Positions 3 through 50,374 of a stretch of 64,000 nucleotides of DNA are shown here, in pieces (position 1 is the stretch's first letter; the number at the start of each line of letters is the position of its first letter). Source of the DNA: a virus (Duplodnaviria; Caudoviricetes); the IMG/VR virus record IMGVR_UViG_3300031994_000079, positions 8,928 to 72,927 of that record, one strand, 5' to 3'. The notes under the pieces are model-generated. The model ran no database searches and had not been told where the DNA came from. It was given only the letters and a program-made list of their open reading frames with translations. The position numbers and the translations under genes are program-made.

Positions 3-146
3 GGTAGATATAAGTTATCTATCGAACGGGCGTTCATTTATGCCAATACTTTAGGTGTACATATAGATGATATTTTGACAATATTCTATCCAAAAGAAAT
101 GGAAGAGAATTATGAGATTTATAAAGAGAACTACCCGTTGAAATAG
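3..146 (+). CDS. 5'-truncated XRE/Cro-CI-type HTH protein (C-terminal part)
   Basis: Frame 3 open from window edge: GRYKLSIERAFIYANTLGVHIDDILTIFYP...; fits the C-terminal helices of HTH_3 domains. Confidence 0.55.
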   Translation, partial: GRYKLSIERAFIYANTLGVHIDDILTIFYPKEMEENYEIYKENYPLK

Positions 147-166
147 TGCGAACCTTATGATATACT
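138..166 (+). promoter_or_regulatory. sigmaA-type early promoter, cassette copy 1
   Basis: TTGAAA(138-143)-N17-TATACT(161-166), with extended -10 TG. Confidence 0.75.
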
Positions 167-213
167 GTTCTTGTAGTTAAGAACAGTATATTTTTTTTGA
201 GAGGAGACAAAAA

Positions 214-540
214 GTGGCAGAGATAAGATGGAAAGATAACTTAAAGAGTATAGGTACTGATATACCAGGAGTTGTGCCTAATAATATTTACATGGCTATG
301 TCAAATATTGAGTTTTATACCAAGACCATAAAAGCACTCTTGAAAGTAGGTTGGAGTTATAATGGAGTTGATGGAGTTATATCTGATTTCCATAATAGAA
401 GGGCTATGAATATTAACATGATAGAACAGTATAATAATGGTGAATATATAGTAAAGATTTGGAAAGATGATAGTATTCATCTTTATAATCGTAAAGAATA
501 TCTATGGAACAGATATAAAATAAGAAAGGAGAAAATATGA
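214..540 (+). CDS. hypothetical protein
   Basis: 108-aa ORF, GAGGAG RBS, just downstream of promoter. Confidence 0.75.
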   Translation: MAEIRWKDNLKSIGTDIPGVVPNNIYMAMSNIEFYTKTIKALLKVGWSYNGVDGVISDFHNRRAMNINMIEQYNNGEYIVKIWKDDSIHLYNRKEYLWNRYKIRKEKI

Positions 541-680
541 CTTTTCGGGAATGGTTAGATGAAACATTTTATCCGGGCTTTGATGCTGATGGATTAAGTG
601 ACGAGGAATATTATGAATTAGAGGATGCCTATTATGAATACAGAAAGGAGAATGGTGATGGAAATGATTACTACGCCTAA
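537..680 (+). CDS. small very acidic protein (47 aa)
   Basis: AGAAAGGAG RBS; MTFREWLDETFYPGFDADGLSDEEYYELEDAYYEYRKENGDGNDYYA; below ORF-track cutoff. Confidence 0.7.
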   Translation: MTFREWLDETFYPGFDADGLSDEEYYELEDAYYEYRKENGDGNDYYA

Positions 681-993
681 CGGCATTGAATATATAACAG
701 ATAATCAGGATGCGGTCGAGCTTGTAAGGAAATATATATCTGATGATATGGCTGATTATGTGGAAAATAAGATAGTGGAGTTTGATGAAGTCGAATGGCG
801 AAATGCACAGGAATGGGCTTCTGACTATCGTGCTATGGAAATGGAAAATGAAGAATGGCGAAATGAGCTGGACGAAATCAACAGCAAGCTCCAGCAGATA
901 ACTTATCAGGCAGATAAACAGCCCGGTATGTCCAAGAGGAAGATATTGAATGAATTGGACCTGATTATAGACCATATTCAAAAATTATTATAA
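652..993 (+). CDS. hypothetical acidic coiled-coil protein
   Basis: ORF 625..993; AGAAAGGAG RBS favours ATG 652. Confidence 0.75.
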   Translation: MVMEMITTPNGIEYITDNQDAVELVRKYISDDMADYVENKIVEFDEVEWRNAQEWASDYRAMEMENEEWRNELDEINSKLQQITYQADKQPGMSKRKILNELDLIIDHIQKLL

Positions 994-1000
994 CTACCGA

Positions 1001-1029
1001 TTGTAATATCAGCGACCATATGCTATAGT
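1001..1029 (+). promoter_or_regulatory. sigmaA-type early promoter, cassette copy 2
   Basis: TTGTAA-N17-TATAGT; 5' leader hairpin GTGTCTGAG(1054-62)/CTCAGACAC(1081-89). Confidence 0.75.
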
Positions 1030-1141
1030 ATAATTGTAAACAACAACAGCAGAGTGTCTGAGGCAGAGCTTAGCGCCTATCTCAGACACAGAAGCCAGAT
1101 AGTTTACAGACCAATAAAGACAATCAAAAGGAGAAAAAAAG

Positions 1142-1423
1142 ATGGCAAAAAAGAAGAACTACTGGTATGTATTGGTAATGACAAACGAAGGGCCGAAGTT
1201 TGTAACTTCGGTCAGCTACATGGATAAGACAGCTCATTGGGATAAGACAGAGAAGCCCTTAGAAATGGACAAAGAGAGAGCAACAGATTTGGCACTTGGG
1301 TTAAATCTCAATATGTATGCCTCATTTGTAGTATGTCAGCCGTTTGAGATTGATAGACAACCCTACAGATATGATATGGGTCATTTTGAGTGGAAAGCAG
1401 AGGAGGTACAGAATGAAGGTTAA
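1142..1423 (+). CDS. hypothetical protein
   Basis: 93-aa ORF with AAAGGAG RBS. Confidence 0.75.
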   Translation: MAKKKNYWYVLVMTNEGPKFVTSVSYMDKTAHWDKTEKPLEMDKERATDLALGLNLNMYASFVVCQPFEIDRQPYRYDMGHFEWKAEEVQNEG

Positions 1424-1742
1424 TAATAGAACACAGAAAGCACAGGAACTTATCCATGATATGTTCAGTACCTATTATAGGGGAAAGACATTATATGATG
1501 TATATGGCAAGTGTAGTGCCAAGAAGAAAAACTCATGGGAAGCCATCAAGAGAGATTGTGAGAGACTTGGTGGTGAGGATTTGCATATCGTAGGTGCTAA
1601 TTGTTATAATTATTCCTGTATATATGCATATCCTATCACAGATACAGAGACAGGGGAAATTACGGATATGGTAATCAGAAAAGAGACTGCCAGTAATACC
1701 TATGAGCTAACATTACCGATAGCAGAATATAATAAACATTGA
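1413..1742 (+). CDS. hypothetical protein
   Basis: GAGGAGG RBS before ATG 1413; overlaps upstream stop. Confidence 0.7.
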   Translation: MKVNNRTQKAQELIHDMFSTYYRGKTLYDVYGKCSAKKKNSWEAIKRDCERLGGEDLHIVGANCYNYSCIYAYPITDTETGEITDMVIRKETASNTYELTLPIAEYNKH

Positions 1743-1750
1743 GAAATACA

Positions 1751-1776
1751 GGCTGTCAAAAATGGCAGCCTTTTTT
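1751..1776 (+). terminator. intrinsic terminator
   Basis: GGCTGTC-AAAAAT-GGCAGCC then T6. Confidence 0.8.
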
Positions 1777-1790
1777 GGCTCTATTGACCA

Positions 1791-1804
1791 GGTTGGTACC
1801 TACC
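1791..1804. repeat. GG-NN-GG-NN-CC-NN-CC palindrome copy
   Basis: GGTTGGTACCTACC; other copies at 4517, 5396 (1 mismatch), 5462, 5504, 6210, 6717. Confidence 0.75.
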
Positions 1805-1850
1805 AGCGAACTCAGTCAGTCAATGGTAAAAAATTTTTCAGAACTGCCGA

Positions 1851-1879
1851 TTGAAAAGTGCTGAACCATATGCTATACT
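1851..1879 (+). promoter_or_regulatory. sigmaA-type early promoter, cassette copy 3
   Basis: TTGAAA-N17-TATACT preceded by ACTGCCGA. Confidence 0.75.
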
Positions 1880-1923
1880 GTACTTGTAAATGAAAACAAG
1901 CAGTATTAGAAAGGAGATATGTT

Positions 1924-2196
1924 ATGGCAAAGTTATATAGAAATAAAGAGGGACAGAAGCTATATCCAGTATGTTCATGGGAGAAGAATCAGCACAAGCT
2001 GTACAATGCCTATGATAGGGCTTTGATTTGGTGCTATGATACAGATTGGAGCGAGGAAGCCATGAATGAGCGTGACAGAGTGGAGCAGGCAATATCGGCT
2101 TTTGATAGTTGCGTTATCAATGGTCTTGTATATGCTACCTATCAGATGGGTCAGATAATCAAGGACATTATATGGGCATATGATGCTCGCCACTAA
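1924..2196 (+). CDS. hypothetical protein
   Basis: 90-aa ORF with AGAAAGGAG RBS. Confidence 0.75.
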   Translation: MAKLYRNKEGQKLYPVCSWEKNQHKLYNAYDRALIWCYDTDWSEEAMNERDRVEQAISAFDSCVINGLVYATYQMGQIIKDIIWAYDARH

Positions 2197-2210
2197 GAAA
2201 GGAGAATACT

Positions 2211-2417
2211 ATGAAATTTTATGTGGATGAATGTGTTGGTTGTAGTAGTATGGGACTGCCTTGTTTAGGCAGTTCATGCCCTAATAGAAATGCAGTACAT
2301 TGGCGGTGTGATGGATGCGGTGATGAAGATGTGCCGTTGTATGAGTTTGAGGATAAAGAATTATGTATGGGTTGTATTGAGCAGTCATTAACCCAGGTGA
2401 ATGAAGGAGTGTGGTAA
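2211..2417 (+). CDS. Cys-rich putative zinc-binding protein
   Basis: CxxC, CxxC and further Cys clusters; AGAAAGGAG RBS. Confidence 0.65.
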   Translation: MKFYVDECVGCSSMGLPCLGSSCPNRNAVHWRCDGCGDEDVPLYEFEDKELCMGCIEQSLTQVNEGVW

Positions 2418-2418
2418 T

Positions 2419-2601
2419 ATGATATTGAGAGATTTTGGTATGATGTGTAATGAATCCATAAACATATTGGTTATCAATCAAGAAGGTCGGGTTATTGATA
2501 TGTATGACGGCAAGAACTCTATAATGGATAAGTTTCTTGAAAGGGAAATAGATAAGATTATAAGGGTTACCTTTAATACAATTTGGGTGCAAGTTTTTTA
2601 A
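2419..2601 (+). CDS. hypothetical protein
   Basis: AAGGAG RBS before ATG 2419. Confidence 0.6.
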   Translation: MILRDFGMMCNESINILVINQEGRVIDMYDGKNSIMDKFLEREIDKIIRVTFNTIWVQVF

Positions 2602-2610
2602 TACTGCCGA

Positions 2611-2639
2611 TTGTAAATGTCTGTACCTCATGTTATAAT
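2611..2639 (+). promoter_or_regulatory. sigmaA-type early promoter, cassette copy 4
   Basis: TTGTAA-N17-TATAAT preceded by ACTGCCGA. Confidence 0.75.
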
Positions 2640-2684
2640 GTACTTGTAAGTAAGAACAGCACTGAGGTGCAGACAGAAGGAGAT

Positions 2685-2984
2685 ATGGAAATGACAGTAA
2701 AGAAATGGATAAGTCGAGACAAAGTTAGGGAAATGTGTATCAGGTATAATTACTACACACGAGGTGATTGTAGAGCCTATGATGTGATGCTTGCCACAGC
2801 AAAAAATCTTGACCCAGAAGATTATGTGGGATTGCTTACAGTAGCCAATGATATTTACAACCATAGCAGTATTCAGGATGATGCAGAGTATTCCAGAAAG
2901 GATATGATAGAGGGTCTTGTATATGGTCTGCTTACAGAATGTGTGGAAATGTATGTAGAAGTGGAAGAAGGTGAAGTAGCATGA
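2685..2984 (+). CDS. hypothetical protein
   Basis: AGAAGGAG RBS before ATG 2685. Confidence 0.7.
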   Translation: MEMTVKKWISRDKVREMCIRYNYYTRGDCRAYDVMLATAKNLDPEDYVGLLTVANDIYNHSSIQDDAEYSRKDMIEGLVYGLLTECVEMYVEVEEGEVA

Positions 2985-3154
2985 CACAGTATATGGTACA
3001 CGATTTCTATTCCGAATCAGTAGTATTTCGAGGCACTGAGCAAGAGTGCCTCGAATACATAAACCAGAATGATGGTAAAAATCATATGGAACTTGAATTG
3101 TATTGGGCAAACCCGGGTGACAGATATTATAAGGAGGTAGAGGAAGATGACTGA
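2981..3154 (+). CDS. small acidic hypothetical protein (57 aa)
   Basis: ATGA overlap with upstream stop; MTQYMVHDFYSESVVFRGTEQECLEYIN... Confidence 0.6.
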   Translation: MTQYMVHDFYSESVVFRGTEQECLEYINQNDGKNHMELELYWANPGDRYYKEVEEDD

Positions 3155-3290
3155 ATATAGGTCAGCAATAGTAGATGAATGTGGTTGTGTTATGTTTTGG
3201 TGTGATGAGCTTCAGGATGAGGACCAGATAGAATGTATATTAGAGGGTCATCCCGAATGGAGCAGAAAATGTATATGCATAGGAGGTTGA
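3147..3290 (+). CDS. small Cys-rich acidic protein (47 aa)
   Basis: AAGGAGG RBS; MTEYRSAIVDECGCVMFWCDELQDEDQIECILEGHPEWSRKCICIGG. Confidence 0.6.
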   Translation: MTEYRSAIVDECGCVMFWCDELQDEDQIECILEGHPEWSRKCICIGG

Positions 3291-3294
3291 TATA

Positions 3295-3561
3295 ATGCAC
3301 GGATGTTCTGATTGTAGGTATTGTAAATGTTACCCTGGTGATTATTGGACACCAGATGATTATGAGTGTACTTCCAATGTTTGGGATAGAATAGATGTTG
3401 ATGAGGAAGTCGTAGAAAAAGTTTGGTGTGATTGCGAAGAATGGAATGATAATGAAGAACCATTATGTCCCGGTTGGGAAGAAGCGCCAACACCAGAAGA
3501 TGAGTATTGGGACAGATATGCATGGGAAGAAAATCATTATGATAAGGATAAGGTAGATTGA
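3295..3561 (+). CDS. Cys-rich highly acidic protein
   Basis: 88 aa, AGGAGG RBS, many D/E/W/C. Confidence 0.7.
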   Translation: MHGCSDCRYCKCYPGDYWTPDDYECTSNVWDRIDVDEEVVEKVWCDCEEWNDNEEPLCPGWEEAPTPEDEYWDRYAWEENHYDKDKVD

Positions 3562-3571
3562 AAGGAGAATA

Positions 3572-3892
3572 ATGATGAGAGAGGAATATTTAAGCGAAAT
3601 TAAAAAGTTGGCTATAGGTCTTATGGAAAGAGGTATACAGTTTGAGTTCCGTAAAATATTTGAAGGTTATCAAATATTAGTATACGAACCTACAGGTAAT
3701 CCTTATGATATATCAGATAAGCTGGTAAGAAAATGGGATGCAGTAATTCATGGGGGTAGTTATGGACATGAATACGGAAAATTAGAAATAATGGGTGACC
3801 TGGTAGATAAGACAAAGACCGATGATGACGTAGAAGGGTGGTTAACAGCAGAGGAGATATTGAAAAGAGTGGATAAGGAGATAAAAGAATGA
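3572..3892 (+). CDS. hypothetical protein
   Basis: 106-aa ORF, GAAAGGAG RBS. Confidence 0.75.
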   Translation: MMREEYLSEIKKLAIGLMERGIQFEFRKIFEGYQILVYEPTGNPYDISDKLVRKWDAVIHGGSYGHEYGKLEIMGDLVDKTKTDDDVEGWLTAEEILKRVDKEIKE

Positions 3893-4041
3893 GAGAATGG
3901 GCAGTTTATAGTTCCAACACAGGAGCATGTTTAGGAGGTATAGGATATTCCTCAGATGAGATATCCGAAGAAGATGCTTATGAGATAGCTGAGGAAATGT
4001 ATAGTGAGGATGTTTATGTAGCAGAGCGCCAGTATTTTTAA
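3889..4041 (+). CDS. small acidic protein (50 aa)
   Basis: AAGGAG RBS; MREWAVYSSNTGACLGGIGYSSDEISEEDAYEIAEEMYSEDVYVAERQYF. Confidence 0.65.
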   Translation: MREWAVYSSNTGACLGGIGYSSDEISEEDAYEIAEEMYSEDVYVAERQYF

Positions 4042-4054
4042 ATACCAATTACCA

Positions 4055-4083
4055 TTTGAGGAAGACTAAAAATCTTCCTCAAA
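4055..4083 (+). terminator. terminator-like perfect hairpin
   Basis: TTTGAGGAAGA-7 nt-TCTTCCTCAAA right after the last ORF of the operon. Confidence 0.7.
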
Positions 4084-4440
4084 TTTATATATGCAGGCAT
4101 ATACCAAAAGCAGAAATTTTAAAAAATCGGCGGGTAAGAAAGAACGAGACACCTACCAATCCATTCATATCAATCCCATTCATATAAAAGAAATCAAACA
4201 CCTCGGCGGTATAGAAGAACGCAATCCTCTACCTATATATTCAATAATACTAATATAACCAATATAAGAAAATACACCAATATAAGTAGATACCACATGC
4301 CAATATACCAGTATGTCTACTGGTACCAACCACAATTGATACCCGTAATTAGTGCCAACCACAATTATATAAATTGTATATATTTTCATGAATATTATAC
4401 AATTTTCAGATAATTCTATACAGTTGTAGTATCGCTCATA

Positions 4441-4478
4441 TGAACACATGTTCAAGTGTTCACACGAACATATGTTCG
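4441..4478. promoter_or_regulatory. two LexA/DinR (SOS, Cheo) box-like sites
   Basis: TGAACACATGTTCA (4441-54) and CGAACATATGTTCG (4465-78, exact match to CGAACRNRYGTTCG), intergenic. Confidence 0.55.
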
Positions 4479-4694
4479 AGCTTGGAATGCAGTATCCATG
4501 CGACTTCCAGCGATTTGGTGGGTGCCTACCTGATGGTAAAAGCGGCAGGTACCGAACGGAAATTCGTCAAAAAAGGCGAAAAAAATTAAAAAAAGTTTGT
4601 ATTACCCATATACAAACGTGTTAGTGTATGTTATAATGTATACATAGTTAAGAGATACGCACAACAGAGTGCAGTCACGAAAGGAGAATATAAT

Positions 4695-5249
4695 ATGGAA
4701 AACAAGACAGCAAAGAAAGTAGTAGCAAAGGCAGTAGATAAGAAGGAAGTTAAGAAGTTCGATTATAAGGCAGTAGCAGAGAGCTTTGAGGCAGCGTTCA
4801 AGAATGACGCCAGAGTAACAGTTATAGCTGATACCAAGCTCGAAAACCCTAAGTCCAATACATATAGTGACTATACATATGTCCACTTTTTCAAGTCTGG
4901 GACGCAGAAAGATATGTTTGGATGCTATCTTATAGGAAAGGGCAGAACGAGATTTGCTCTTAGCCTTGCAGTAGCAGAATATATCAAGGGATTGCCTGTA
5001 CAGCCTGTAGAGAAGAAGATTAAGGGCGAAAAGAAGCTGGTAGCAATAGATGTTATATGCGCCAATGAGGATGCTGTGAATGTCGCCAACACCATTATAG
5101 AAGCATACGCCAGCATTCCTGTTAAGTCTAAGAAGGAGATAGCTGAGAAGTCAGAGCCTAAGAAAGAGAAGAAACCTGCTACCAGTAAGAAGGCGACAGT
5201 AGCAAAGCATCCCGCAAAGGCAACAGAGAAGAAGGCAGTAAATAAGTAA
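4695..5249 (+). CDS. Lys/Ala-rich hypothetical protein (histone-like termini)
   Basis: 184 aa, GAAAGGAG RBS, extended -10 TGTTATAAT at 4629-37. Confidence 0.8.
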   Translation: MENKTAKKVVAKAVDKKEVKKFDYKAVAESFEAAFKNDARVTVIADTKLENPKSNTYSDYTYVHFFKSGTQKDMFGCYLIGKGRTRFALSLAVAEYIKGLPVQPVEKKIKGEKKLVAIDVICANEDAVNVANTIIEAYASIPVKSKKEIAEKSEPKKEKKPATSKKATVAKHPAKATEKKAVNK

Positions 5250-5282
5250 TTATCCACAGTTTGCATAGTGTATCTCTTTACA

Positions 5283-5317
5283 GGAGAGGGTCTTGTCAAC
5301 CCTCTCCACTTTCTTTT
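5283..5317 (+). terminator. intrinsic terminator
   Basis: GGAGAGGG...CCCTCTCC then T-rich tract. Confidence 0.75.
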
Positions 5318-5630
5318 GGCCAATATATATACGCTGGTTGGTACCATATATCAATTTCCCCATTGTGCAAGGTGCACAAAAGCTGGAGGTCGCATGGTTG
5401 GTGACTTCCAAGTGTTCTTGTCCATAGTAGTGTTGGCCAGCCCCCATGTGGATATAAAAATGGATGGTGCCTGCCAATTTTCCTTCGTCAATTTGCACAA
5501 AAAGGCGGGTACCTGCCAAGTAACAAAAAAAGTTTCATATACCACTGTTCATAACTCTATACCTTTGATATACTATACTTGTAAGCAATTACACTTACAG
5601 ACAGCACATGACCAGAAAGGAGATACAGAC

Positions 5631-5747
5631 ATGAAACTAAAGTACAAGATTTACCAGCTTAGATGTAAGCTCGCTAACAAGCCCGATATTGACTACATTG
5701 AGTTTGTTGCCAGAACGATATTTATAAGGGGAGGGGTAAGAGTATGA
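5631..5747 (+). CDS. small basic protein (38 aa)
   Basis: AGAAAGGAG RBS before ATG 5631. Confidence 0.55.
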   Translation: MKLKYKIYQLRCKLANKPDIDYIEFVARTIFIRGGVRV

Positions 5748-5880
5748 GCCAGATAATAAGAAGCATAGAGACTTCCACAGCAAATATGCTGAAAGCCGAA
5801 AAAGAGAGATATATCCGTGAATTATATATAGCCGGAATTATAACAGCAACCGAGTATTCAATATTGAAAGGAGAGGTATT

Positions 5881-6015
5881 ATGAATATTTTTGAATTTAC
5901 CACTTATGAAGAAGCCATCAATGCTTTTATAGAACAGACAGGAGGATATGTAGAAAATCCTGAAGATTATATAATGTTTGATGGTGAAGTATATTGGTAT
6001 AAGATGAATGCATAG
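5881..6015 (+). CDS. small acidic protein (44 aa)
   Basis: GAAAGGAGAGG RBS; MNIFEFTTYEEAINAFIEQTGGYVENPEDY... Confidence 0.65.
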   Translation: MNIFEFTTYEEAINAFIEQTGGYVENPEDYIMFDGEVYWYKMNA

Positions 6016-6029
6016 AAAGGAGAATTATT

Positions 6030-6167
6030 ATGAGTAAGGAATTAGAGAGAGCATTGGAGACAGAGCAGTTTGATAATATGGAATATCATATAATAGACAG
6101 CCTCGATATATATGAGGAACTTTCTGATAGATATGCCGATTATATATCATCCAGTGATTACGAGTGA
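6030..6167 (+). CDS. small acidic protein (45 aa)
   Basis: AGAAAGGAG RBS; MSKELERALETEQFDNMEYHIIDSLDIYEELSDRYADYISSSDYE. Confidence 0.65.
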   Translation: MSKELERALETEQFDNMEYHIIDSLDIYEELSDRYADYISSSDYE

Positions 6168-6171
6168 GGGT

Positions 6172-6196
6172 AGGGAGCGAAAGCTCCCTTCTTTTT
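6172..6196 (+). terminator. intrinsic terminator (GAAA tetraloop)
   Basis: AGGGAGC-GAAA-GCTCCCT-TCTTTTT. Confidence 0.85.
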
Positions 6197-6209
6197 AAGC
6201 GTTAGTATA

Positions 6210-6223
6210 GGTAGGTACCTACC
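6210..6223. repeat. perfect 14-bp palindrome GGTAGGTACCTACC
   Basis: Lies between terminator and next promoter (-10 TGTTATAAT near 6268). Confidence 0.8.
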
Positions 6224-6329
6224 GAGCGAAATTTTTTTGAGTTGCCACTATCATTATGTTATCATTATGTTATAATATAATTGTAAACAAAAACAGCTTG
6301 ACGCACAGCGCCAGAAAGTGAGAGTAAAT

Positions 6330-6560
6330 ATGTCTGAAAAAATTTTCTATTATGCTATGAACAATGATGCCTATGTAGTTATGCCTGAAGAAGATTATAA
6401 TACCGTCAATGAATTGATTGATATGAATGCCGAAGTTCTTGATGCTTATGATGAGAACCTTATAGCAGAGATACCTGATGAGTTTTATATTAGAGAGCGC
6501 CAGATTCAGAAGTTATTAAATATGACCGATGATGAATTTGCCATGTGCATATTATATTAG
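6330..6560 (+). CDS. highly acidic hypothetical protein
   Basis: 76 aa from ATG 6330, D/E-rich. Confidence 0.65.
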   Translation: MSEKIFYYAMNNDAYVVMPEEDYNTVNELIDMNAEVLDAYDENLIAEIPDEFYIRERQIQKLLNMTDDEFAMCILY

Positions 6561-6580
6561 AGAGCCTGATGGCTCTTTTT
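6561..6580 (+). terminator. intrinsic terminator
   Basis: AGAGCC-TGAT-GGCTCT-TTTT. Confidence 0.7.
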
Positions 6581-6853
6581 ATATACGGGATATTGCCTTT
6601 GATGCCATTTGGAAGAAACTATCCAGAAAATATATACGCGGTAGGATATAACCAGAAAAATTTAAAATTTATATACGGCTGGTCCATTCCTGAGAAGTTT
6701 AAAAATATATACACTTGGTTGGCGCCAGCCCCGCATTTTGAAAAATTGCGAGGGCAATGTTTCACGCATGTTTCACGAAGTCGAACATTCATTTGTTGTT
6801 ATTATGCACAAAAACAGTGCTGATTCTTTGTACAATATTTTTGCGTTCTGTGC

Positions 6854-6882
6854 TTGACTATAATAACATTATCACTTATAAT
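6854..6882 (+). promoter_or_regulatory. near-consensus sigmaA promoter inside island
   Basis: TTGACT-N17-TATAAT. Confidence 0.85.
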
Positions 6883-6946
6883 AGATAATGTAAAGAGAAC
6901 ACAGCAACTTGCAAGCTGATAAGCAAGTAAAAAACAGCTCAAGACT

Positions 6947-7393
6947 ATGACAAACACAAAGAAAGCGAATAAGACCACGTTTGAAACTATCAACGCAGTA
7001 GTAAAAGACTTTTCAAATATCTTTACACTTCAAAACAATGAAGTCAATCAATATGCAAGAGTATGTTTTACAGATACATTTAAAAAAGATTATTACAATT
7101 TAATGAGAGATTTCGCTATTTATTATGATAGAAAAGATAGTTATAAAATCAGCATTTCCGACAAGTATTTAACCGCGACACAGTGTAAAGATTTCAAGTC
7201 AACGCATGAAAAGTCAGATAAAACGAAAGCACTTGAGTTTAGTGTAAAAGCTGATAGCATTAAAGATGTAATATTAGAGCTTGTAGCAATTAAGTTATTA
7301 CAGACTAACAAAATCGTTGAATACACGAAAGTTAAAATTAAGACAACGACAGCAAACAAGCGTTCGAATAAGAAAAAAGAGCAAACAGCATAA
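6947..7393 (+). CDS. basic hypothetical protein lacking Gly, Pro and Trp
   Basis: 148-aa ORF between strong promoter and terminator; no GG-containing SD. Confidence 0.75.
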   Translation: MTNTKKANKTTFETINAVVKDFSNIFTLQNNEVNQYARVCFTDTFKKDYYNLMRDFAIYYDRKDSYKISISDKYLTATQCKDFKSTHEKSDKTKALEFSVKADSIKDVILELVAIKLLQTNKIVEYTKVKIKTTTANKRSNKKKEQTA

Positions 7394-7410
7394 CAAACAG
7401 ACATTCGAAC

Positions 7411-7443
7411 AGAGCGAACACAAACAAGTGTTCGCTCTTTTTT
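7411..7443 (+). terminator. intrinsic terminator built without GG/CC
   Basis: AGAGCGAACAC-AAACAA-GTGTTCGCTCT then T-run. Confidence 0.85.
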
Positions 7444-7640
7444 CGTGTTCTGATTTTGTGTTCGAATATCTGTTCGAAAAAATGTTTCACGATATGTTTC
7501 ACGAATTGTGTCAAAATCATACACAATTCTTTATCATTTTAGCGTGTTAAAGTTAGCGACTGCTAACCCCCATACACGTCAACACTTCACAGTGCTAAAG
7601 CGTGCAGAGACGAGAGTTTCTCACTCCCACGTCGGCTGTA

Positions 7641-7728
7641 TTTTTCTAAAGAACTACCGTGTTCTGGCACTTTTTCTAAAGAACTGCGGAAAAGTCGGTT
7701 TTTATTTTGGTAGGATTTTCTAAAGAAC
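7641..7728 (+). repeat. three direct repeats TTTTCTAAAGAAC upstream of packaging operon
   Basis: Copies at about 7642, 7672 and 7716. Confidence 0.8.
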
Positions 7729-7735
7729 GCCCGAG

Positions 7736-7764
7736 TTGATTTTCAAGGTTTCTTATATTATAGT
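7736..7764 (+). promoter_or_regulatory. sigmaA-type promoter of packaging operon
   Basis: TTGATT-N17-TATAGT. Confidence 0.65.
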
Positions 7765-7787
7765 ATGTTTCAAAGAGGTGATTTATA

Positions 7788-8108
7788 GTGGCTGATTTAA
7801 CAGGAGCGAGAAAGAAACTTATAACCGCCCTTAATAAGGTATATGATATGAAGCTCTTATATACAACAAGGGAATTTATGGGGAAAGAAGGTTATCCTCA
7901 TACTATGTATGGTCTTTCTCAGGCTGTTTGGGATGAGGAGAAAGGAAAGTACAGCTCTATGAAGATTTACGAAACGGCTTCTTTAATTCGCCTGATTTTA
8001 TATTTAAGGGATTTATTATTTTTGGCGCAAGGGAAGAGTTTACCTATGGATAATGAAATGTGGAATGAGAAGAGGCCTAAGGAATTATTGGCTTTGGAAA
8101 AGGAGTAG
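7788..8108 (+). CDS. hypothetical protein upstream of terminase
   Basis: 106 aa, GAGGTG RBS, GTG start. Confidence 0.75.
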   Translation: MADLTGARKKLITALNKVYDMKLLYTTREFMGKEGYPHTMYGLSQAVWDEEKGKYSSMKIYETASLIRLILYLRDLLFLAQGKSLPMDNEMWNEKRPKELLALEKE

Positions 8109-8111
8109 TTT

Positions 8112-8558
8112 ATGGGCGCTACGTATATGGGTTTTGGGGCACTTAGAAGAAATACTGTAAGGAATGCGGATGATAAGATATTTGGTGTTTCTTATGCAAT
8201 AAGATTTACCAATAGTGCGCCGAGAGGGGCTAATTTTTCAAAACCTTCTGAGGACAATATACAGATGGTTATTAGGGCAGAAGATGGCGAGGATATTTTA
8301 ATGCAGTTCCAACTTAGCAGGAATAATTTACAGATAAGAGCTTATGACCCTAATGTGGCTGTTTCTGCCAGGGCTGTGGTTGACGGGAAATACCCTTCCA
8401 TAGATACTGTCATTAAGGAAGGGAAAACTTTGGCTGACAGAATGAATGCCCAGAAGCTCAAAGACATTACAAAGAAAACTCTGGCAGGTGTTTCTGTTGA
8501 AAGTCTTTCACGTATTTATAATGAACTTGTCTTGAGAAAGAAAAGGAGGAGAAGATGA
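8112..8558 (+). CDS. hypothetical protein
   Basis: 148 aa, basic C-terminus. Confidence 0.7.
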   Translation: MGATYMGFGALRRNTVRNADDKIFGVSYAIRFTNSAPRGANFSKPSEDNIQMVIRAEDGEDILMQFQLSRNNLQIRAYDPNVAVSARAVVDGKYPSIDTVIKEGKTLADRMNAQKLKDITKKTLAGVSVESLSRIYNELVLRKKRRRR

Positions 8559-9070
8559 CTGTTGATGAGTTAATGGAGAATTTTCAGAAATATACTAATT
8601 ATAAGGAACTTCTCACTACTAATTCAGGCCATGAAATTTCACCTAAAGAACATAAGTTTGTTAATTCTTATATGATAAATGGTGACCCGGCTGTTGCGGC
8701 TAAGGATGCAGGCTATGTTATTAAGAATAAGACAACTTATGAGAATATAGGCAAAAGACTTCTCAAAAAACCCTATATCTATGAGGAGATTCTTTATAGG
8801 ATAGAGGAAATGAATAAGTCTCAGATAGCGGACGAGCAGGAAGTTATGAGATATTTTACAGCAGTCATGAGAGGGGAAGTCAAAGACCAGTTTGACCTTG
8901 ATGCCCCGCTTTCTGAAAGGACATCGGCTGCCAAAGAACTTGCCAAGAGGTTGATAGATGTACCAGCTAAACAGGCAGACACAGCTATTCAGATAAACCT
9001 TAATTGGAGCCGAGAACCAGTTTTAGAAACAGAATATGTAGAATCAGAGGTAGTTGCGGATGCAGTATAA
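8555..9070 (+). CDS. terS: terminase small subunit
   Basis: SPKEHKFVNSYMINGDPAVAAKDAGY...LLKKP HTH and EQEVMRYFTAVMRGE...SERTSAAKELAKR motifs; directly before TerL. Confidence 0.85.
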   Translation: MTVDELMENFQKYTNYKELLTTNSGHEISPKEHKFVNSYMINGDPAVAAKDAGYVIKNKTTYENIGKRLLKKPYIYEEILYRIEEMNKSQIADEQEVMRYFTAVMRGEVKDQFDLDAPLSERTSAAKELAKRLIDVPAKQADTAIQINLNWSREPVLETEYVESEVVADAV

Positions 9071-10337
9071 CCTATCTATCAAAGATAATGTAATTCCTAT
9101 GTTTGATGATGTTTTAGAGGATATTCTGGAACATAATCATGTACATTATGTTTTTAAAGGCGGCAGAGGAAGCACCAAATCATCATTTATTTCTCTTGCA
9201 ATACCTCTTCTTATTATAAAAAACCCCAATATTCACGTTGTTGTTTTTAGAAAAGTCGGGAATACCATGAAAAACAGCGTTTGGGGACAGGTTGTTTGGG
9301 GCATAAATCGTTGGGGACTTGATAGCCTTTTTCATATACCTAAATCTATAGCAAATCCCATAATTTATAAGCCTACAGGGCAACAGATTATGTTTTTTGG
9401 CTTGGATGACCCCAATAAAGTCAAGTCTGTTAAGTTACCTTTTGGGTATATAGCAGTTACTTGGTTTGAGGAACTTGACCAGTATGCTGGAGAAGCGGAA
9501 ATTCGTAAAGTTTTGCAGTCTACCATGCGTGGTGGACCTATATTTTGGGATTTTCGTTCTTTTAACCCACCTATTTCTAATATGAATTGGGCGAATCAGT
9601 ATGCCACGGATGCTATGTCAAGAGAAAATACGCTTGTTACCAGCAATACTTATTTAGATGTACCAGAAGATTGGCTTGGGCAAGCATTTTTAGACGAAGC
9701 AGAAGACCTAAAAGAGACAAATCCACGAGCTTACGAGCATGAATATTTAGGAATACCAGTTGGAACCGGGGGAAATGTGTTTGAAAATGTCGAAGCTCTT
9801 TATATGGATGACGAACTTATAATGAGTTTTGAGAGAATTTACAGTGGAGTGGATTGGGGTTGGTATCCTGACCCATTTGCCTTTGTAAAATGTGCTTTTA
9901 ATGCCAATAGACGAGACTTATATATCTTTGCAGAATTTAGAACCAACAAAATGTCAAATAAGGATACCTATAATAAGCTGTATAATGAGCTTACTTACGG
10001 AAATGATATTCCTTTTATGCGACCAGATGAGATTGTGACCTGTGATAGTGCTGAACCTAAATCTGTTTCTGACTATAAATCTTACGGTGGATATGGTGCC
10101 AGACCTGCTGAAAAGGGACCTGACAGCATAGTTTATTCAATGAAATGGCTACAATCACTTAATCATATTTATATTGACCCAAATCGTTGTCCAGGTACAT
10201 ATAAAGAGTTTGTGGAGTATGAGTATGAAAGAGATAAAAATGATGAAGTCATAAGTGGTTATCCAGACCTGAACAACCACAGTATAGATGCCACTCGCTA
10301 TAGTCTGGAACGTTACTGGAAGAGGAGAGGGCAGTGA
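9060..10337 (+). CDS. terL: terminase large subunit (PBSX-like)
   Basis: Walker A GGRGSTKS, Walker B WFEE, SFNPP coupling motif, nuclease GVDWG and NHSIDATRY. Confidence 0.95.
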   Translation: MQYNLSIKDNVIPMFDDVLEDILEHNHVHYVFKGGRGSTKSSFISLAIPLLIIKNPNIHVVVFRKVGNTMKNSVWGQVVWGINRWGLDSLFHIPKSIANPIIYKPTGQQIMFFGLDDPNKVKSVKLPFGYIAVTWFEELDQYAGEAEIRKVLQSTMRGGPIFWDFRSFNPPISNMNWANQYATDAMSRENTLVTSNTYLDVPEDWLGQAFLDEAEDLKETNPRAYEHEYLGIPVGTGGNVFENVEALYMDDELIMSFERIYSGVDWGWYPDPFAFVKCAFNANRRDLYIFAEFRTNKMSNKDTYNKLYNELTYGNDIPFMRPDEIVTCDSAEPKSVSDYKSYGGYGARPAEKGPDSIVYSMKWLQSLNHIYIDPNRCPGTYKEFVEYEYERDKNDEVISGYPDLNNHSIDATRYSLERYWKRRGQ

Positions 10338-10366
10338 TTGTCCTTAGGACATATGTGTGTTATAAT
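10338..10366 (+). promoter_or_regulatory. sigmaA-type promoter of portal gene
   Basis: TTGTCC-N17-TATAAT; TGTCC-TTA-GGACA palindrome over the -35. Confidence 0.6.
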
Positions 10367-10403
10367 ATATTTGGTAGTGGTAAGTATAAGAGGGAGATAA
10401 ACA

Positions 10404-12287
10404 ATGAACTTTTATGACGTATGGAATAAAATTAAAGAAAGGGTAAAAGGTATGTTTGGTCCTAAAGAAATTGAAAGAGCAATAAAAGTTGCACCTACGC
10501 TATCATCAAAGATGGCAGATGCTATAACATTGTGGAGTAATATGTATGAAGATAATCCACCTTGGCTGAAAGAAGCTACAAAAGATAACCCTACAAGAGT
10601 TGTTTCTTTAGGATTACCTTCTCTTATAGCAAGTGAAAAGGCAAGACTTGCAACTCTTGAAATGGAATCAGAGATTACCACACCTGTCAAAGAAGTTGAA
10701 AAAGAAAATCCTGATTATCAGCCGCCTTCTATTGATGAGACAACAGGTCAGATTTCAATGGGTGTTGGTGAAACAACAATCAAAGAAGATGTACCTATCG
10801 GCAATACAGATAGAGCAGAGTTCCTCAACGAGCAATATAAAAAGCTCAAAAAACATATAAGGAGACAGCTTGAATATGGTATTGCTAAGGGTGGTCTGGT
10901 AATTAAGCCGTATATCATGCTACATGACGATTTTAATGATGCTTCTACACGCACAGAGACAGCTCAAAATGACGATTTAAAATCAAAGTCGATAAATACT
11001 ACAATACGCAATAAAAAACTTCATTTTGACAATAATTTAGACGCTGAGACAAAGAATAAATATAAAGCTGATATAGAATTTGATTTTATACAGGCAGATA
11101 ACTTTTATCCTCTTTCTTTTGACGCAAATGGCAAGATTATTGAGGCTGCATTTATTCAGAGAAGATTGGATAAAGAATACGTTTATAGCAGACTTGAATA
11201 TCATAAACTTGAAGGCAGAACTGTAACAGTAAGCAATTATGCTTATAAAAAGAATAGGACAATAGAGCTTACAAGCCCTAATAGATTAGAAGTTGATTTA
11301 GGACAAGAAGTACCGCTTTCAAGTGTACCAGAATGGGCAGATTTACAACCTACTGTGACTATTGAAGGTGTTGATAGACTTCTTTTTGCATACTTTAAGA
11401 TGCCCGAAGCTAATACAATCGACACTCATAGTCCTTTAGGTGTTAGTGCATATAGTAGAGTAGTCAATCTTATAAAAGACGCCGACTATCAATATTCTCG
11501 TCTGTTATGGGAATATGAAGGTGGTGAATTAGCTATTGATGTTGACCGAGACGCTCTTAAACTTATTACTGATGCTAATGGTAATGATGTTACTCGATTA
11601 CCAATAATGCAGGAAAGACTGTTCAGAAAAGTAGACCTTAATGCAGAAGATACTTATAATGTATTTGCGCCAGAGTTAAGAGACACAGCTATAATAAATG
11701 GTCTTAATACGATTCTTATGAGGATAGAAGATGCAATAGGTCTTTCAAGAGGAACAATCTCAGGTGACCCTCAGTTTGTAGCTACCGAGGCTAAGACAGC
11801 TACAGAAATGAAGATATTAAAGCAGAGGAGTTATTCAACCAATGCTGACATACAGGAAGCCCTTGAAGATGCTCTTAGGGATGTTATTTATGTAATGGAT
11901 GTGTATGCAACATTATATAGCGTAACTACCGAAGGTAAATATGAAGTTTCGTTTGAGTGGGATGATAGTATTCTGGTAGATGCAGAATCAGAGCTTACCA
12001 AGAGGTTATCACTTATAGATGCGGGTCTTGCCTCTAAACTTGAGGTAAGAATGTGGTACTTTGGTGAGACTGAAAATCAGGCTAAGGCAGCATTACAGAA
12101 GATTGACGAGGAGAACAAACGTGCGATTGAGACTAATATGATGGCACAGTCACAATTAGGTCAGGTAGCACAACAGCAGTCTTTTAAAGGATTAGAAAAA
12201 GACCCAGCTACAAAGAACGCTCAATTAAAACAAGAGGGAACTGCTAAACAGACAGCACAGGCAATAAAGTCTAAAAATAACGAATAA
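10404..12287 (+). CDS. portal protein (SPP1/A118-type) with insertions
   Basis: Position after TerL; PLGVSAYS, AKTATE, FEWDDSIL motifs. Confidence 0.9.
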   Translation: MNFYDVWNKIKERVKGMFGPKEIERAIKVAPTLSSKMADAITLWSNMYEDNPPWLKEATKDNPTRVVSLGLPSLIASEKARLATLEMESEITTPVKEVEKENPDYQPPSIDETTGQISMGVGETTIKEDVPIGNTDRAEFLNEQYKKLKKHIRRQLEYGIAKGGLVIKPYIMLHDDFNDASTRTETAQNDDLKSKSINTTIRNKKLHFDNNLDAETKNKYKADIEFDFIQADNFYPLSFDANGKIIEAAFIQRRLDKEYVYSRLEYHKLEGRTVTVSNYAYKKNRTIELTSPNRLEVDLGQEVPLSSVPEWADLQPTVTIEGVDRLLFAYFKMPEANTIDTHSPLGVSAYSRVVNLIKDADYQYSRLLWEYEGGELAIDVDRDALKLITDANGNDVTRLPIMQERLFRKVDLNAEDTYNVFAPELRDTAIINGLNTILMRIEDAIGLSRGTISGDPQFVATEAKTATEMKILKQRSYSTNADIQEALEDALRDVIYVMDVYATLYSVTTEGKYEVSFEWDDSILVDAESELTKRLSLIDAGLASKLEVRMWYFGETENQAKAALQKIDEENKRAIETNMMAQSQLGQVAQQQSFKGLEKDPATKNAQLKQEGTAKQTAQAIKSKNNE

Positions 12288-32557: not shown

Positions 32558-32767
32558 ATGATTGAATATACCAATACACAGGTATCTAATATAATAGACG
32601 AGTATATTCATTCTGAAAGAGATAGAGCCATTCTCAAACGGCGTCTTATTGATGGCATATGTTATGAACCATTGGCAGAAGAATTTGACCTATCAGTCAG
32701 ACGAGTTAAAACTATTGTAAAGAATGGTCAGGAGAAAGTCTTTTCTAAGTTATGGCAAAATATTTAA
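32558..32767 (+). CDS. sigma-70 region-4-like HTH protein
   Basis: SERDRAILKRRLIDGICYEPLAEEFDLSVRRVKTIV. Confidence 0.7.
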   Translation: MIEYTNTQVSNIIDEYIHSERDRAILKRRLIDGICYEPLAEEFDLSVRRVKTIVKNGQEKVFSKLWQNI

Positions 32768-33393
32768 TCCACAGCTGTAATCAACGTCAATGGTATGTTG
32801 ACAAATATCTTATACCAAATCTTATATCTCAAGGAATCGAAAGAGAAAATATACAAATATTTCAAGATACAGAACAATTAGGCAATCTTTTTGCGTTTAT
32901 TAGAAGTTTGGAAGATTTAAAAGAAGATACATGGCATTTACAAGATGATATAATTCTTTCAACAACTTTCAAAAAGAGGACCGAAGAGTATGACGAAGGT
33001 ATTGTTTGTGGTTTTTGCAGTACATACACAAGAAACTTTGGACCGGGTATTAGAAAGCCCAGAGAATTATGGTGTTCATTTCCATGCATAAGAATACCTA
33101 ATAAGATAGCACATGAATTTGTTGATTGGTTTTATAAAGATGTTATCCACAATCCGGAATACAGAATGTGGGTAAGACGTAAAAAGTATGATGATAGTTT
33201 ATTTAGGATATTCTTAGAAGATAATTATACAGACATGGATATTCTCAATCTCGCACCCAATATTGTGAATCATATAGATTATCTTTTAGGTGGTAGTGTT
33301 GTGAATAATGAACGTACTGAAAACAGGGTGACTTCGATATATTGGGAAGAACAAGGATTGTTAGAATATTGGGAAGGTAGATTAGTAAGATGA
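32752..33393 (+). CDS. putative GT-A fold glycosyltransferase
   Basis: WHLQDDIIL DxD-like motif; PNIVNHID. Confidence 0.6.
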   Translation: MAKYLIHSCNQRQWYVDKYLIPNLISQGIERENIQIFQDTEQLGNLFAFIRSLEDLKEDTWHLQDDIILSTTFKKRTEEYDEGIVCGFCSTYTRNFGPGIRKPRELWCSFPCIRIPNKIAHEFVDWFYKDVIHNPEYRMWVRRKKYDDSLFRIFLEDNYTDMDILNLAPNIVNHIDYLLGGSVVNNERTENRVTSIYWEEQGLLEYWEGRLVR

Positions 33394-34010
33394 AATATAT
33401 AATCATGTGCGGTGGTAATTATCATACAAAACAGCTTAAATTTTTATCTTGCGTAAAAGGTGAGACTATAGTACAAAGAACAATAAGGCTTTTACGACAA
33501 ACAGGTGTAGAAGATATAGCAATAAGCAGTAACTATAAAAGACTTGAAGGTTTTGGTGTACCTGTTCTTCATCATTCCAATAAATTTGATATATACAATC
33601 CAAAAACTTATTGGTATGATGCATTTTATCCTACTGATGAACCTGTATGCTATATATTTGGTGATGTTGTATTTTCAGAATACGCTATAAATTATATAGT
33701 AAATTATAAAACAACCAGAATTGAATTTTTTGCGAGTGCTCCACCTTTTCCAAAAAACTATATGAAGAAATGGGCAGAACCATTTGCTTTTAAAGTTGTA
33801 GATACAAAATATTTTTGGGAATGTGTGAATAAAGCAAAACGATGGCAAGATGAAGGTAGATTTTCACGATGGCCAGTATCTTGGGAATTATGGCAAGTAA
33901 TACAAAAATCAGAAATAAACAGAATAAAACCAGACTATTGTATTATAAATGATTTCACTTGTGATTGTGATACACAATTAGAAGCAAGGGAAATAGAAAA
34001 GTATATGTAA
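33390..34010 (+). CDS. putative sugar nucleotidyltransferase (NTP_transf-like)
   Basis: YIIMCGG...K...VKGETIVQRTIRLL; GDVVF; DCD near C-terminus. Confidence 0.65.
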   Translation: MKYIIMCGGNYHTKQLKFLSCVKGETIVQRTIRLLRQTGVEDIAISSNYKRLEGFGVPVLHHSNKFDIYNPKTYWYDAFYPTDEPVCYIFGDVVFSEYAINYIVNYKTTRIEFFASAPPFPKNYMKKWAEPFAFKVVDTKYFWECVNKAKRWQDEGRFSRWPVSWELWQVIQKSEINRIKPDYCIINDFTCDCDTQLEAREIEKYM

Positions 34011-45894: not shown

Positions 45895-46522
45895 GGCAGA
45901 TAATTACGGTAGCAATGGTGGTAGTAGTTTTTTCACATTACGTGATGATGGTGATACAGCAAGAGTACGTATTATGTATGGCAGTATTGATGATGTAGAA
46001 GGTCTTTCAGTACATGAGATAGACCTGAACGATAAGAAAAGGTATGTAAACTGCATCAGAGAATATAATGACCCGATAGATATGTGTCCTCTTTGCAAAG
46101 CAAACTACAAGATACAGGCTAAGTTGTTTGTACCGTTGTATAATGAAGATACAGGCGAAACACTTGTTTGGGAGAGGGGTAAGAAGTTCTTTGGTAAGAT
46201 TTCAGATTTGTGTACAAGATATGATAACCTCGTTTCAAGAGTGTTTGAGATTGTAAGACATGGCAAGCCGAAAGATACAGGTACAACATATGAGATATGG
46301 CCTGTAGGTGATAAAGACAATACAACATTTGAAGATTTGCCTGAACCTGTAGATGTTATGAAAGGTATTGTGCTTGATAAGACAGCAGATGAACTTGACT
46401 ATTATCTGAGGTATCATGAGTTTCCCGATAATGATGCTCCTGCGAGAGAAGAAGCACCGAGACGCAGAGAGCAGTCAGTACCTATGAGAAGAACTCCTGC
46501 GAGAGGAAATGAGGCATTCTAA
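45875..46522 (+). CDS. single-stranded DNA-binding protein (gp32-like)
   Basis: FFTLRDDGD, HE...YVNC...CPLC, WERG; acidic/Pro tail ending in F. Confidence 0.75.
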   Translation: MRFSYNEADNYGSNGGSSFFTLRDDGDTARVRIMYGSIDDVEGLSVHEIDLNDKKRYVNCIREYNDPIDMCPLCKANYKIQAKLFVPLYNEDTGETLVWERGKKFFGKISDLCTRYDNLVSRVFEIVRHGKPKDTGTTYEIWPVGDKDNTTFEDLPEPVDVMKGIVLDKTADELDYYLRYHEFPDNDAPAREEAPRRREQSVPMRRTPARGNEAF

Positions 46523-48054: not shown

Positions 48055-48185
48055 ATTTTTCACAACAAGTCACAAGCAACTTATCAGAGGAAAATATTGG
48101 AAGAAATGAAAAAAGGTTATTGTATGTTTAGGAGAAGAAAATATACTTTTGACATACATTGGTATAGAAAGGGAGGTGATGCCAA

Positions 48186-48245
48186 ATGAAAAAGTCGATA
48201 AGAGTTAGAAAAAATTATGTTCTAATGTCTGCCGACTATTCTTAG
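48186..48245 (+). CDS. polA: PolA motif-A mini-ORF (19 aa) ending in TAG
   Basis: GGGAGGTG RBS; MKKSIRVRKNYVLMSADYS*. Confidence 0.75.
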   Translation: MKKSIRVRKNYVLMSADYS

Positions 48246-48246
48246 G

Positions 48247-49975: not shown

Positions 49976-49978
49976 ATT

Positions 49979-50374
49979 ATGCCATTGATAAATGTAAAGA
50001 AAAAGGAAATTGATAATACATATACAACTAAAGTACAGATACCACAATATATTCCAAAACAAGAAAAGCCACCTATAACAGGGTTAGTAGACACAGAGAA
50101 GTATTCAAAATTACTTTATAATATCAATAATAGTAATGTGTCTGAGGAAGAGAAGAAGTTTTTGAGGTTTGCGGCTGCAAGACATTTAGCATTTAACTAT
50201 TCATTGATAGCTGATTACTATGCCAACGCAGATAAAGAAATGCAAGAACTTATGGAACAGTCAGCGTTAGTAATATTGGATATAGATGATGCTATAGCTA
50301 ATGGATATGTTAAGTTATCGGATAGCATAAAGCAGTTATTAAAGGAGAGTGGTGAACTTGCATCTAAGGAGTAA
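49979..50374 (+). CDS. accessory protein between the two glycosyltransferase genes
   Basis: FLRFAAARHLAFNYSLIADYYA...LVILDIDDAIANG. Confidence 0.6.
   Translation: MPLINVKKKEIDNTYTTKVQIPQYIPKQEKPPITGLVDTEKYSKLLYNINNSNVSEEEKKFLRFAAARHLAFNYSLIADYYANADKEMQELMEQSALVILDIDDAIANGYVKLSDSIKQLLKESGELASKE

Follow-up and report, generated by a model that had tools for sequence, protein, structure and literature searches.

A phage transcription unit purged of GG and CC on both strands, its counterparts in related phages and the CC-keyed promoters of the other early genes

Why should a phage build one of its transcription units almost without GG on either strand, to the point of encoding a protein that lacks three amino acids? 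The question is raised by a window of 64,000 nucleotides (the whole stretch of DNA analysed here, to whose first letter all positions refer), which forms part of the complete 72,927-bp circular assembly (72-nt overlap) of an uncultured tailed phage of the rumen. The best-matching sequencing runs are sheep gut metagenomes, with partial matches in goat and cattle gut, and a search of INPHARED returned no close isolate, the best terminase match being 52%. The present genome is hereafter referred to as G000, related genomes carry G numbers and related loci L numbers. A preliminary description, made from the letters alone, had reported that no GG occurs from 6755 to 7633 and that only three CC precede 7567, and had placed in this island a near-consensus promoter, a 148-aa ORF free of Gly, Pro and Trp and a terminator whose stem avoids both steps. 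All of these were found, and are listed here with the neighbouring features.

6216-6570, plus strand: shoulder, the second-longest GG-free stretch, GG-free on the plus strand only (CC kept), over a 76-aa ORF (6330-6560)
6755-7566, both strands: GG/CC-purged island, 0 GG and 3 CC; the GG-free stretch runs on to 7633
6758-6776, plus strand: a tandem pair of TGTTTCAC motifs resembling parS half-sites, on the left margin of the island
6854-6882, plus strand: sigma-A-type consensus promoter, TTGACT-17-TATAAT, without the CC element of the other early promoters
6947-7393, plus strand: ORF 6947, a 148-aa basic protein (pI 9.5) with no Gly, Pro or Trp and no GGAG Shine-Dalgarno; predicted alpha/beta domain and Lys-rich tail
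7411-7445, plus strand: intrinsic terminator (also delimited as 7411-7438), stem without a GG/CC step
7463-7502, plus strand: LexA-box-like site (7463) and two TGTTTCAC motifs (7483, 7495) at the right edge of the island
7567-7571, plus strand: CCCCC run closing the island; candidate terminus or terminase site
7642-7737, plus strand: TTTTCTAAAGAAC repeated three times in the interval that separates the island from the terminase operon; candidate sites for packaging proteins
7788-10337, plus strand: operon of two genes without assigned function, the terminase small subunit (8555-9070) and the terminase large subunit (9054-10337)

The genes from 8555 onward encode the two terminase subunits, the portal and the capsid. 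The gap between successive GG dinucleotides extends from 6753 to 7634 (881 nt), the next longest in the window, as in the 72,927-bp genome, being 357 nt, and the CC that precede the CCCCC run lie at 6975, 7158 and 7173. The segment 7567-7633 is GG-free only, the purging of both strands stopping at 7566. For 6755-7633, where no GG was observed, 22.9 would be expected from the local composition and about 37 from the window-wide rate. In 6755-7566 the observed sum of GG and CC, 3, compares with a mean of 40.7 (sd 5.6, minimum 22) in 20,000 mononucleotide shuffles, and this is the strongest k-mer depletion of the genome (log10 p -12.5, corrected for local composition). When the codons of ORF 6947 were redrawn with the protein fixed, the 3 observed sites stood against 11.2 expected (z -2.6), so that the loss of Gly, Pro and Trp accounts for most of the effect. 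The purging reaches about 100-130 nt past the promoter on the 5' side and about 120-130 nt past the terminator on the 3' side. An assembly artefact is unlikely, since an identical ORF 6947 protein is present in ENA and Logan assemblies, a single contig of the probable source sample covers the entire island stretch and the trait is common to relatives. A shoulder similar to that at 6216-6570 is found in L004. Separately, the whole G000 genome strongly avoids CTAG (2 against 277 expected) and GATC (28 against 464) and, to a lesser degree, CGCG, GGCC, CCGG and GCGC, which is ordinary restriction-site avoidance.

Examination of terminase-anchored loci revealed that about 25 relatives, with terminase identities from 88% down to 57%, keep a GG/CC-poor block of 0.5–1.7 kb upstream of the terminase genes, with gaps of up to 1,225 nt. 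The genes within these islands encode unrelated or weakly related basic proteins of 120-200 aa and lie on either strand, which indicates that the constraint follows position and not protein. Homologues of ORF 6947 (24 sequences, 46-85% identity) contain no Gly, Pro or Trp in 20 cases and a single one in three more, and GG/CC-free gaps of 671, 733 and 657 nt cover the corresponding unit in L050, L051 and L307. In the family typified by the island protein of L011, 50 of the 73 members are free of the three residues and 23 are not, and on a tree inferred with Gly, Pro and Trp masked at least five changes of state are forced, so that these residues are compatible with the fold and the ban is toggled by lineage. 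A survey of 1,262 ORFs of 110-220 aa from these genomes recovered five with no Gly, Pro or Trp, all of them island genes. The selection against GG on both strands proposed in the preliminary description is thus borne out: the homologues avoid the three residues, the block persists around different proteins, and the circumstances that would have spoken against it (free use of Gly, Pro and Trp by homologues, a non-significant depletion, an artefact) were not encountered.

The same comparisons show how readily the trait changes. The packaging genes of the island-bearing L011, L305 and L306 are 89-93% identical to those of G011, which has no island and a CC-rich first gene (89 CC against 48 expected), and the island state flips between phages about 92% identical, repeatedly on the tree. 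G024 and G044 ban GGA/TCC instead (1 against 26 and 0 against 21 expected, respectively) in the same layout, as expected if the motif of a modifying enzyme changes; in G024 a motif-rich block immediately precedes the motif-free unit, and in G044 a G-run Shine-Dalgarno replaces GGAG. The island of G036, of about 550 nt, is non-coding, and several relatives carry short purged patches after a GG/CC-rich block. The purging is thus selected at the DNA level, tied to position and lineage-switchable. Two further candidates were rejected: what looked like AT-, TAA- and ATA-free islands (G025, G028, G033 and G034) did not survive correction for local composition and reflect composition and codon bias, and a rule confined to the template strand proved inconsistent, the residual sites being mostly plus-strand GG regardless of gene direction, with exceptions including G000.

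Other features of these loci were also recorded. A second, shorter GG/CC-poor patch lies about 2 kb upstream of the main island in L098 (G043) and L093 (G049). The first gene of some non-island relatives is CC-enriched (z +3.6 to +8.2; L013:7863-8399 of G011, L010:2091-2600 and L015:7687-8199) and has a GC-rich hairpin in its leader, the promoter of the G011 first gene being of the CC-keyed type described below. In the G011 group, the interval between terminase and portal holds a reverse transcriptase gene beside a variable 599-aa gene (L305:11581-12729 and L314:108-1256), probably a diversity-generating retroelement.

Motifs also cluster at both edges of the island. The TGTTTCAC motifs resemble the half-site of the parS consensus, and relatives carry LexA-like or parS-like motifs at the corresponding right-edge position, L005 having a full parS palindrome just after 1634; such motifs may serve to bring host ParB or LexA to the end of the DNA. 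In many relatives the right edge is formed by a C5 or G5 run, which, together with the LexA-like and parS-like motifs, would mark a terminus region. In one run (X3, contigs only) the contig depth is about 15 over 4580-7870 and 7.7 over 7890-12000, a weak signal that either a long terminal repeat spanning the early region or a mixture of strains could produce. That the island is the first-entering genome end is plausible.

The promoters of the remaining early genes in the window differ from that of the island, and palindromes built from the same dinucleotides are scattered among them.

134-6276, plus strand: CC-keyed early promoters (CC, 2-3 nt, weak -35, TG, -10), with the -10 starting at 161, 1024, 1874, 2634, 5569 and 6271
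44474 and 60252: further CC-keyed promoters; four more lie upstream of the window
1791-6730, unstranded: 14-bp palindromes GG-NN-GG-NN-CC-NN-CC, exact at 1791, 4517, 5462, 5504, 6210 and 6717, with one mismatch at 4544, 5396 and 6677

Early promoters were collected from 11 related genomes and loci, those of islands being set apart. In 57 of the 63 others a CC lies 26-28 nt before the -10 (exactly 27 in 51), against a CC background of 2% per position, and the -35 is degenerate; many have a second CC, or a GG, 7-8 nt before the -10, and in G021 and L124 a CC falls within the -10 itself (TACCTT). The island promoters are of the plain consensus type (TTGACW) with no CC. The clade therefore has two classes of promoter, one belonging to the purged first unit and the other marked by the very step that this unit avoids. 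In a distant sub-clade the CC at 27 is missing; G033 and G034 have a GG 7-8 nt before the -10 and G029 a CC in the spacer. Exact copies of the palindrome number seven in the whole genome, and several occur in G001, G002, L004, L050, L051 and L307; in 16 of 34 cases the palindrome sits 46-52 nt upstream of a -10, the modal distance. It is absent from the island phages G006 and G020-G023 and is thus not the cause of the island. The distances from box to promoter showed no significant helical phasing (Rayleigh p 0.06-0.08 at 10.5-11 bp).

A candidate source of a mark on these steps is located between the genes for PolA and the clamp.

49133-51233, plus strand: candidate DNA-modification cassette of TAGT-A (49133-49975), a ParB-C-terminal-like gene (49979-50374) and TAGT-B (50349-51233)

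Both TAGT proteins match PF20691 above the cut-off (E 3e-15 and 1e-31). In relatives the same slot is occupied by TAGTs, other glycosyltransferases, TGT/DpdA-like and Vut_1 genes, or methyltransferases. TAGTs occupy it in G000, G020, G021, G022 and G023, all island-bearing, and these together with G024, whose TAGTs are divergent, have strong islands, whereas G011 and G012, with two TAGTs and CC-keyed promoters, have no island. A walk along an island-bearing relative of G011 towards its TAGT cassette led to a copy of G011 itself. Neither TAGT nor DpdA-like genes, nor an island, were found in the near-complete G030, G031, G037, G038 and G039, the G031 assembly also being without the whole PolA module. 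The association of TAGT with a strong island (6/14 against 1/9; one-sided Fisher p about 0.12, calculated by hand) is not significant and is confounded by kinship. No island was found in the unrelated TAGT phages c5, jlb1, NTR1 ends and MT835491, nor in G027, G032 and G035, which are most of the DpdA-like relatives. The complete G000 genome gave no match to TET/JBP (PF12851), thymidylate synthase (PF00303) or TGT (PF01702), and its cassette slot holds no member of the relatives' DpdA-like cluster. Further writer candidates are a 336-aa PP-loop gene (QueC/PAPS-reductase-like; the match is weak and QueC-like) and an adjacent gene for a 313-aa amino-methyltransferase, seen outside the window at genome positions 3718-5704 (L024:3718-5704); the pair occurs in several relatives with and without islands, but G021 and G022, which lack both, still have islands.

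Near the cassette, PolA is encoded in two ORFs of 510 and 295 aa about 210 nt apart (46522-49155), and a homing-endonuclease-like ORF splits PolA at a similar place in G022, G034, G037 and G040, which suggests an intron or an intron remnant. Elsewhere in the window, a possible glycosyltransferase-like gene and a nucleotidyltransferase gene (PF12804) follow the lysis genes (32752-34010); in G002 and L050 the homologous genes are found close to the portal.

What the island encodes was approached through predicted structures. ORF 6947 had no match in PHROGs, Pfam or Atlas (best Atlas feature score 0.75), a pattern scan of IMG/VR found no relative, no homology to the MotA sequence was detected in PHROG or Pfam, and its homologues are all unnamed. 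Its model (pLDDT 69, the Lys-rich tail disordered) has a topology like those of the MotA C-terminal domain, YjbR and type III secretion (T3SS) chaperones. Against the T4 MotA C-domain (5jlt_A) it gave Z 6.2 and rmsd 6.3 over 102 aligned residues (Foldseek E 0.09), and the L011-family model (pLDDT 90) gave Z 5.2 and rmsd 3.9 over 105. Foldseek E values for MotA were 0.09-0.16 across both island families, with other folds tying: Mediator Med17, T3SS chaperones and YjbR were matched by both models. All fold matches fall below Z 8, the level demonstrating kinship, and are tied with T3SS chaperones and Mediator subunits. The MotA match is of interest only since MotA activates a second class of promoters and its saddle fits glucosylated cytosine, and the ORF 6947 product may act as an activator or licensing factor. 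RNA-library contigs from another study cover 6909-7059 and 7198-7398, a weak hint of expression. A possible distant paralogue is encoded nearby.

4695-5249, plus strand: basic early protein of 184 aa, encoded in a promoter-terminator unit separate from its neighbours, with Gly and Pro used freely

Weak transitive phmmer hits and the shared topology suggest that the families of ORF 6947, ORF 4695 and L011 form one superfamily; profile-profile comparison of the three was not significant (E 0.14-0.68).

The reading that we favour, to which we give somewhat less than an even chance, is that GG and CC are modified in virions and that a terminal unit which cannot be modified makes the factor that turns on the CC-keyed promoters. 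The GG/CC steps of virion DNA would receive a bulky mark, probably a sugar from the TAGT/ParB-like cassette, and DNA so marked would be a poor substrate for unaided host machinery. A stretch by the putative chromosome end without GG or CC would escape marking, and its promoter, the sole early one identified of the plain consensus type, could be used by host RNA polymerase immediately. The product, a small basic and presumably DNA-binding protein with a MotA-like saddle (a weak fold match), would then recognise both the CC element and the GG/CC palindromes of the remaining early promoters and activate these promoters, or might otherwise enable the polymerase on marked DNA. Its wider premise of a phage-made mark on GG/CC is fairly probable in our judgement, the more so as the explanation considered next shares it; the TAGT cassette, the CC-keyed promoters and the switch to GGA/TCC speak indirectly for it, with G011 and G012 as counter-examples.

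Several observations weigh against the favoured reading. In G011 and G012 the first gene is CC-rich despite two TAGTs and CC-keyed promoters, and the close kin of G011 (L011, L305 and L306) carry the island. The link between TAGT and island is not significant, unrelated TAGT phages are islandless and no TET/JBP, ThyS or TGT homologue was found to supply an acceptor for the TAGTs. Among the island phages, the more distant ones make no use of the CC at -27, and the fold matches are below the level of kinship. The island of G036 is non-coding, so a pure block to transcription, which the preliminary description had offered as one explanation, is incomplete. The glucosylated DNA of T4 is transcribed by host polymerase, and hence a sugar alone need not block transcription.

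An explanation that we hold to be unlikely, while taking it seriously, accepts the modification of GG and CC and has the island purged as first-entering DNA, or as the end held by the terminase or portal. It would have to evade host nucleases that depend on modification, or remain accessible to proteins that bind the end, for as long as the rest of the genome is not yet coated or protected by the island product, a situation like that of staged entry in T5. This would accommodate the purging that passes promoter and terminator by about 130 nt and halts at the conserved C5/G5 run beside the terminase operon, as well as the non-coding island of G036, the short purged patches of several relatives and, weakly, the doubled contig depth to the left of about 7870, as a long terminal repeat would give. 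Taken alone, it leaves the CC-keyed promoters unaccounted for, and anti-restriction proteins that mimic DNA are acidic, whereas the product here is basic.

Rather improbable, in our estimate, is a widespread bacterial defence, such as a guanine ADP-ribosyltransferase or a nuclease directed at dinucleotides, that reads or modifies plain GG/CC as the DNA comes in, with the island encoding its inhibitor. Patchy host defences would drive just such repeated flips between close relatives, and the link between TAGT and island is not significant, but separate reasons would be needed both for the phage's own promoters being keyed by the same dinucleotide and for the GG/CC- or GGA/TCC-rich blocks directly before islands. 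The literature searches found no such factor, and we know of none that reads plain GG/CC. Quite improbable is a phage protein acting without covalent modification. Such a protein, encoded by the island or co-injected as a core protein, would bind plain GG/CC steps and turn on the CC-keyed promoters, and its own gene, did it contain the step, would be blocked. This fits the two promoter classes and the palindromes and needs no TAGT acceptor, but GG/CC is present in every other phage gene, all of which would be blocked as well, and in G011, G012 and G007 members of the same protein family are encoded by a CC-rich gene.

Very improbable is the avoidance of PAMs, whether NGG (Cas9) or of the CC type (type I-F, I-B), by a unit whose product would be an anti-CRISPR protein. 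GG and CC are real PAM cores, and AcrIIA11 is among the weak fold matches, at a background level (Z 5.1-5.2). A PAM does harm only where a spacer matches, a pressure presumably too weak to strip Gly, Pro and Trp across lineages, and the non-coding island, the GGA/TCC variant and the CC of the promoters would be left unexplained. The anti-defence role first proposed for ORF 6947 thus gained no positive support, the protein being basic and without a match to a defence family. Chance, composition, protein-level constraint or artefact, with a negligible probability, is refuted by the shuffle null, the purged non-coding flanks, the blocks of relatives with other genes, the ORF survey and the masked-tree state changes, even though the island is slightly AT-richer (32% against 35% GC) and the ORF 6947 family is nearly always free of the three residues.

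Among known systems, the closest parallel to the favoured reading is T4 MotA, and PMC6755090, which cites Cuypers 2018, describes the MotA C-terminal domain straddling glucosylated DNA and activation of middle promoters at the MotA box. In both cases an early small protein would activate a second class of promoters through a C-containing upstream element on sugar-modified DNA: the CC-keyed promoters share an upstream element and a poor -35, ORF 6947 would be the putative reader, and the island proteins are predicted, from weak matches (Z 5-6), to have a similar alpha/beta saddle topology. They differ in that the island proteins have no sequence similarity to MotA, neither its N-terminal activation domain nor an AsiA partner was seen, and the element here is a CC beside the -35 with a palindrome further upstream; moreover, in T4 every cytosine is modified and no gene is free of a motif.

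The leading region of T7 is a comparable terminal, first-expressed unit. So is the first-step-transfer, pre-early region of T5 (10.1101/866236, PMC10644984), where, as is putatively the case here, such a unit licenses the rest of infection; the T5 region, however, takes up about 8% of its genome, and neither region is known to be dinucleotide-free to the point of losing three amino acids.

With regard to the mark itself, the two PF20691 proteins resemble those of TAGT/GT-A phage DNA glycosylation (PF20691; 10.1101/2023.12.21.572611; PMC13390438), and the ParB-related gene beside the DNA polymerase recalls ParB-assisted base modification (PMC13229309). G000 differs in having no TET/JBP or thymidylate-synthase homologue that would make a hydroxymethyl acceptor, and no motif-free gene is described for TAGT or ParB-assisted systems in the literature searched. 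The post-replicative sugar systems known so far are limited to a motif, GpC (10.1101/2023.12.21.572611). The motifs of DpdA 7-deazaguanine systems vary among GA, GGC and GGT (CAjan GA/GGC/GGT, iggy GA; PMC10484667); in being short, switchable and centred on G, these motifs are similar to the bans on GG and GGA, and the TGT/DpdA-like genes of relatives lie in the same PolA-clamp slot, but G000 has no TGT match and most DpdA-like relatives are islandless.

The literature search returned no description of GG/CC-free or dinucleotide-free phage gene units. New here are the class of CC-keyed promoters, the GGA/TCC variant with the same layout, the non-coding island and the finding that near-identical phages may or may not have the island. 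That a whole unit, its amino-acid content and its ribosome-binding site are shaped by the exclusion of a two-letter step implies that something in infected cells reads GG/CC at a high cost, and the searches turned up no described system of this kind. A bolder version of the favoured reading, which we put forward tentatively and consider somewhat unlikely, is that the dinucleotide mark is a built-in timing switch: glycosylation at every GG/CC would need no hydroxymethyl base, all second-wave promoters would be keyed to the mark, and one terminal gene of reduced alphabet (no Gly, Pro, Trp or GGAG), being unmarkable, would encode the reader that sets the programme going, with the forbidden motif changing as the enzyme does. 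If this is true, islands would predict modification motifs from sequence alone. If the favoured reading holds, these phages would provide a case of epigenetic gating of a phage gene programme together with a new DNA glycosylation chemistry, and motif-free islands could be used to infer the modification motifs of uncultured phages.
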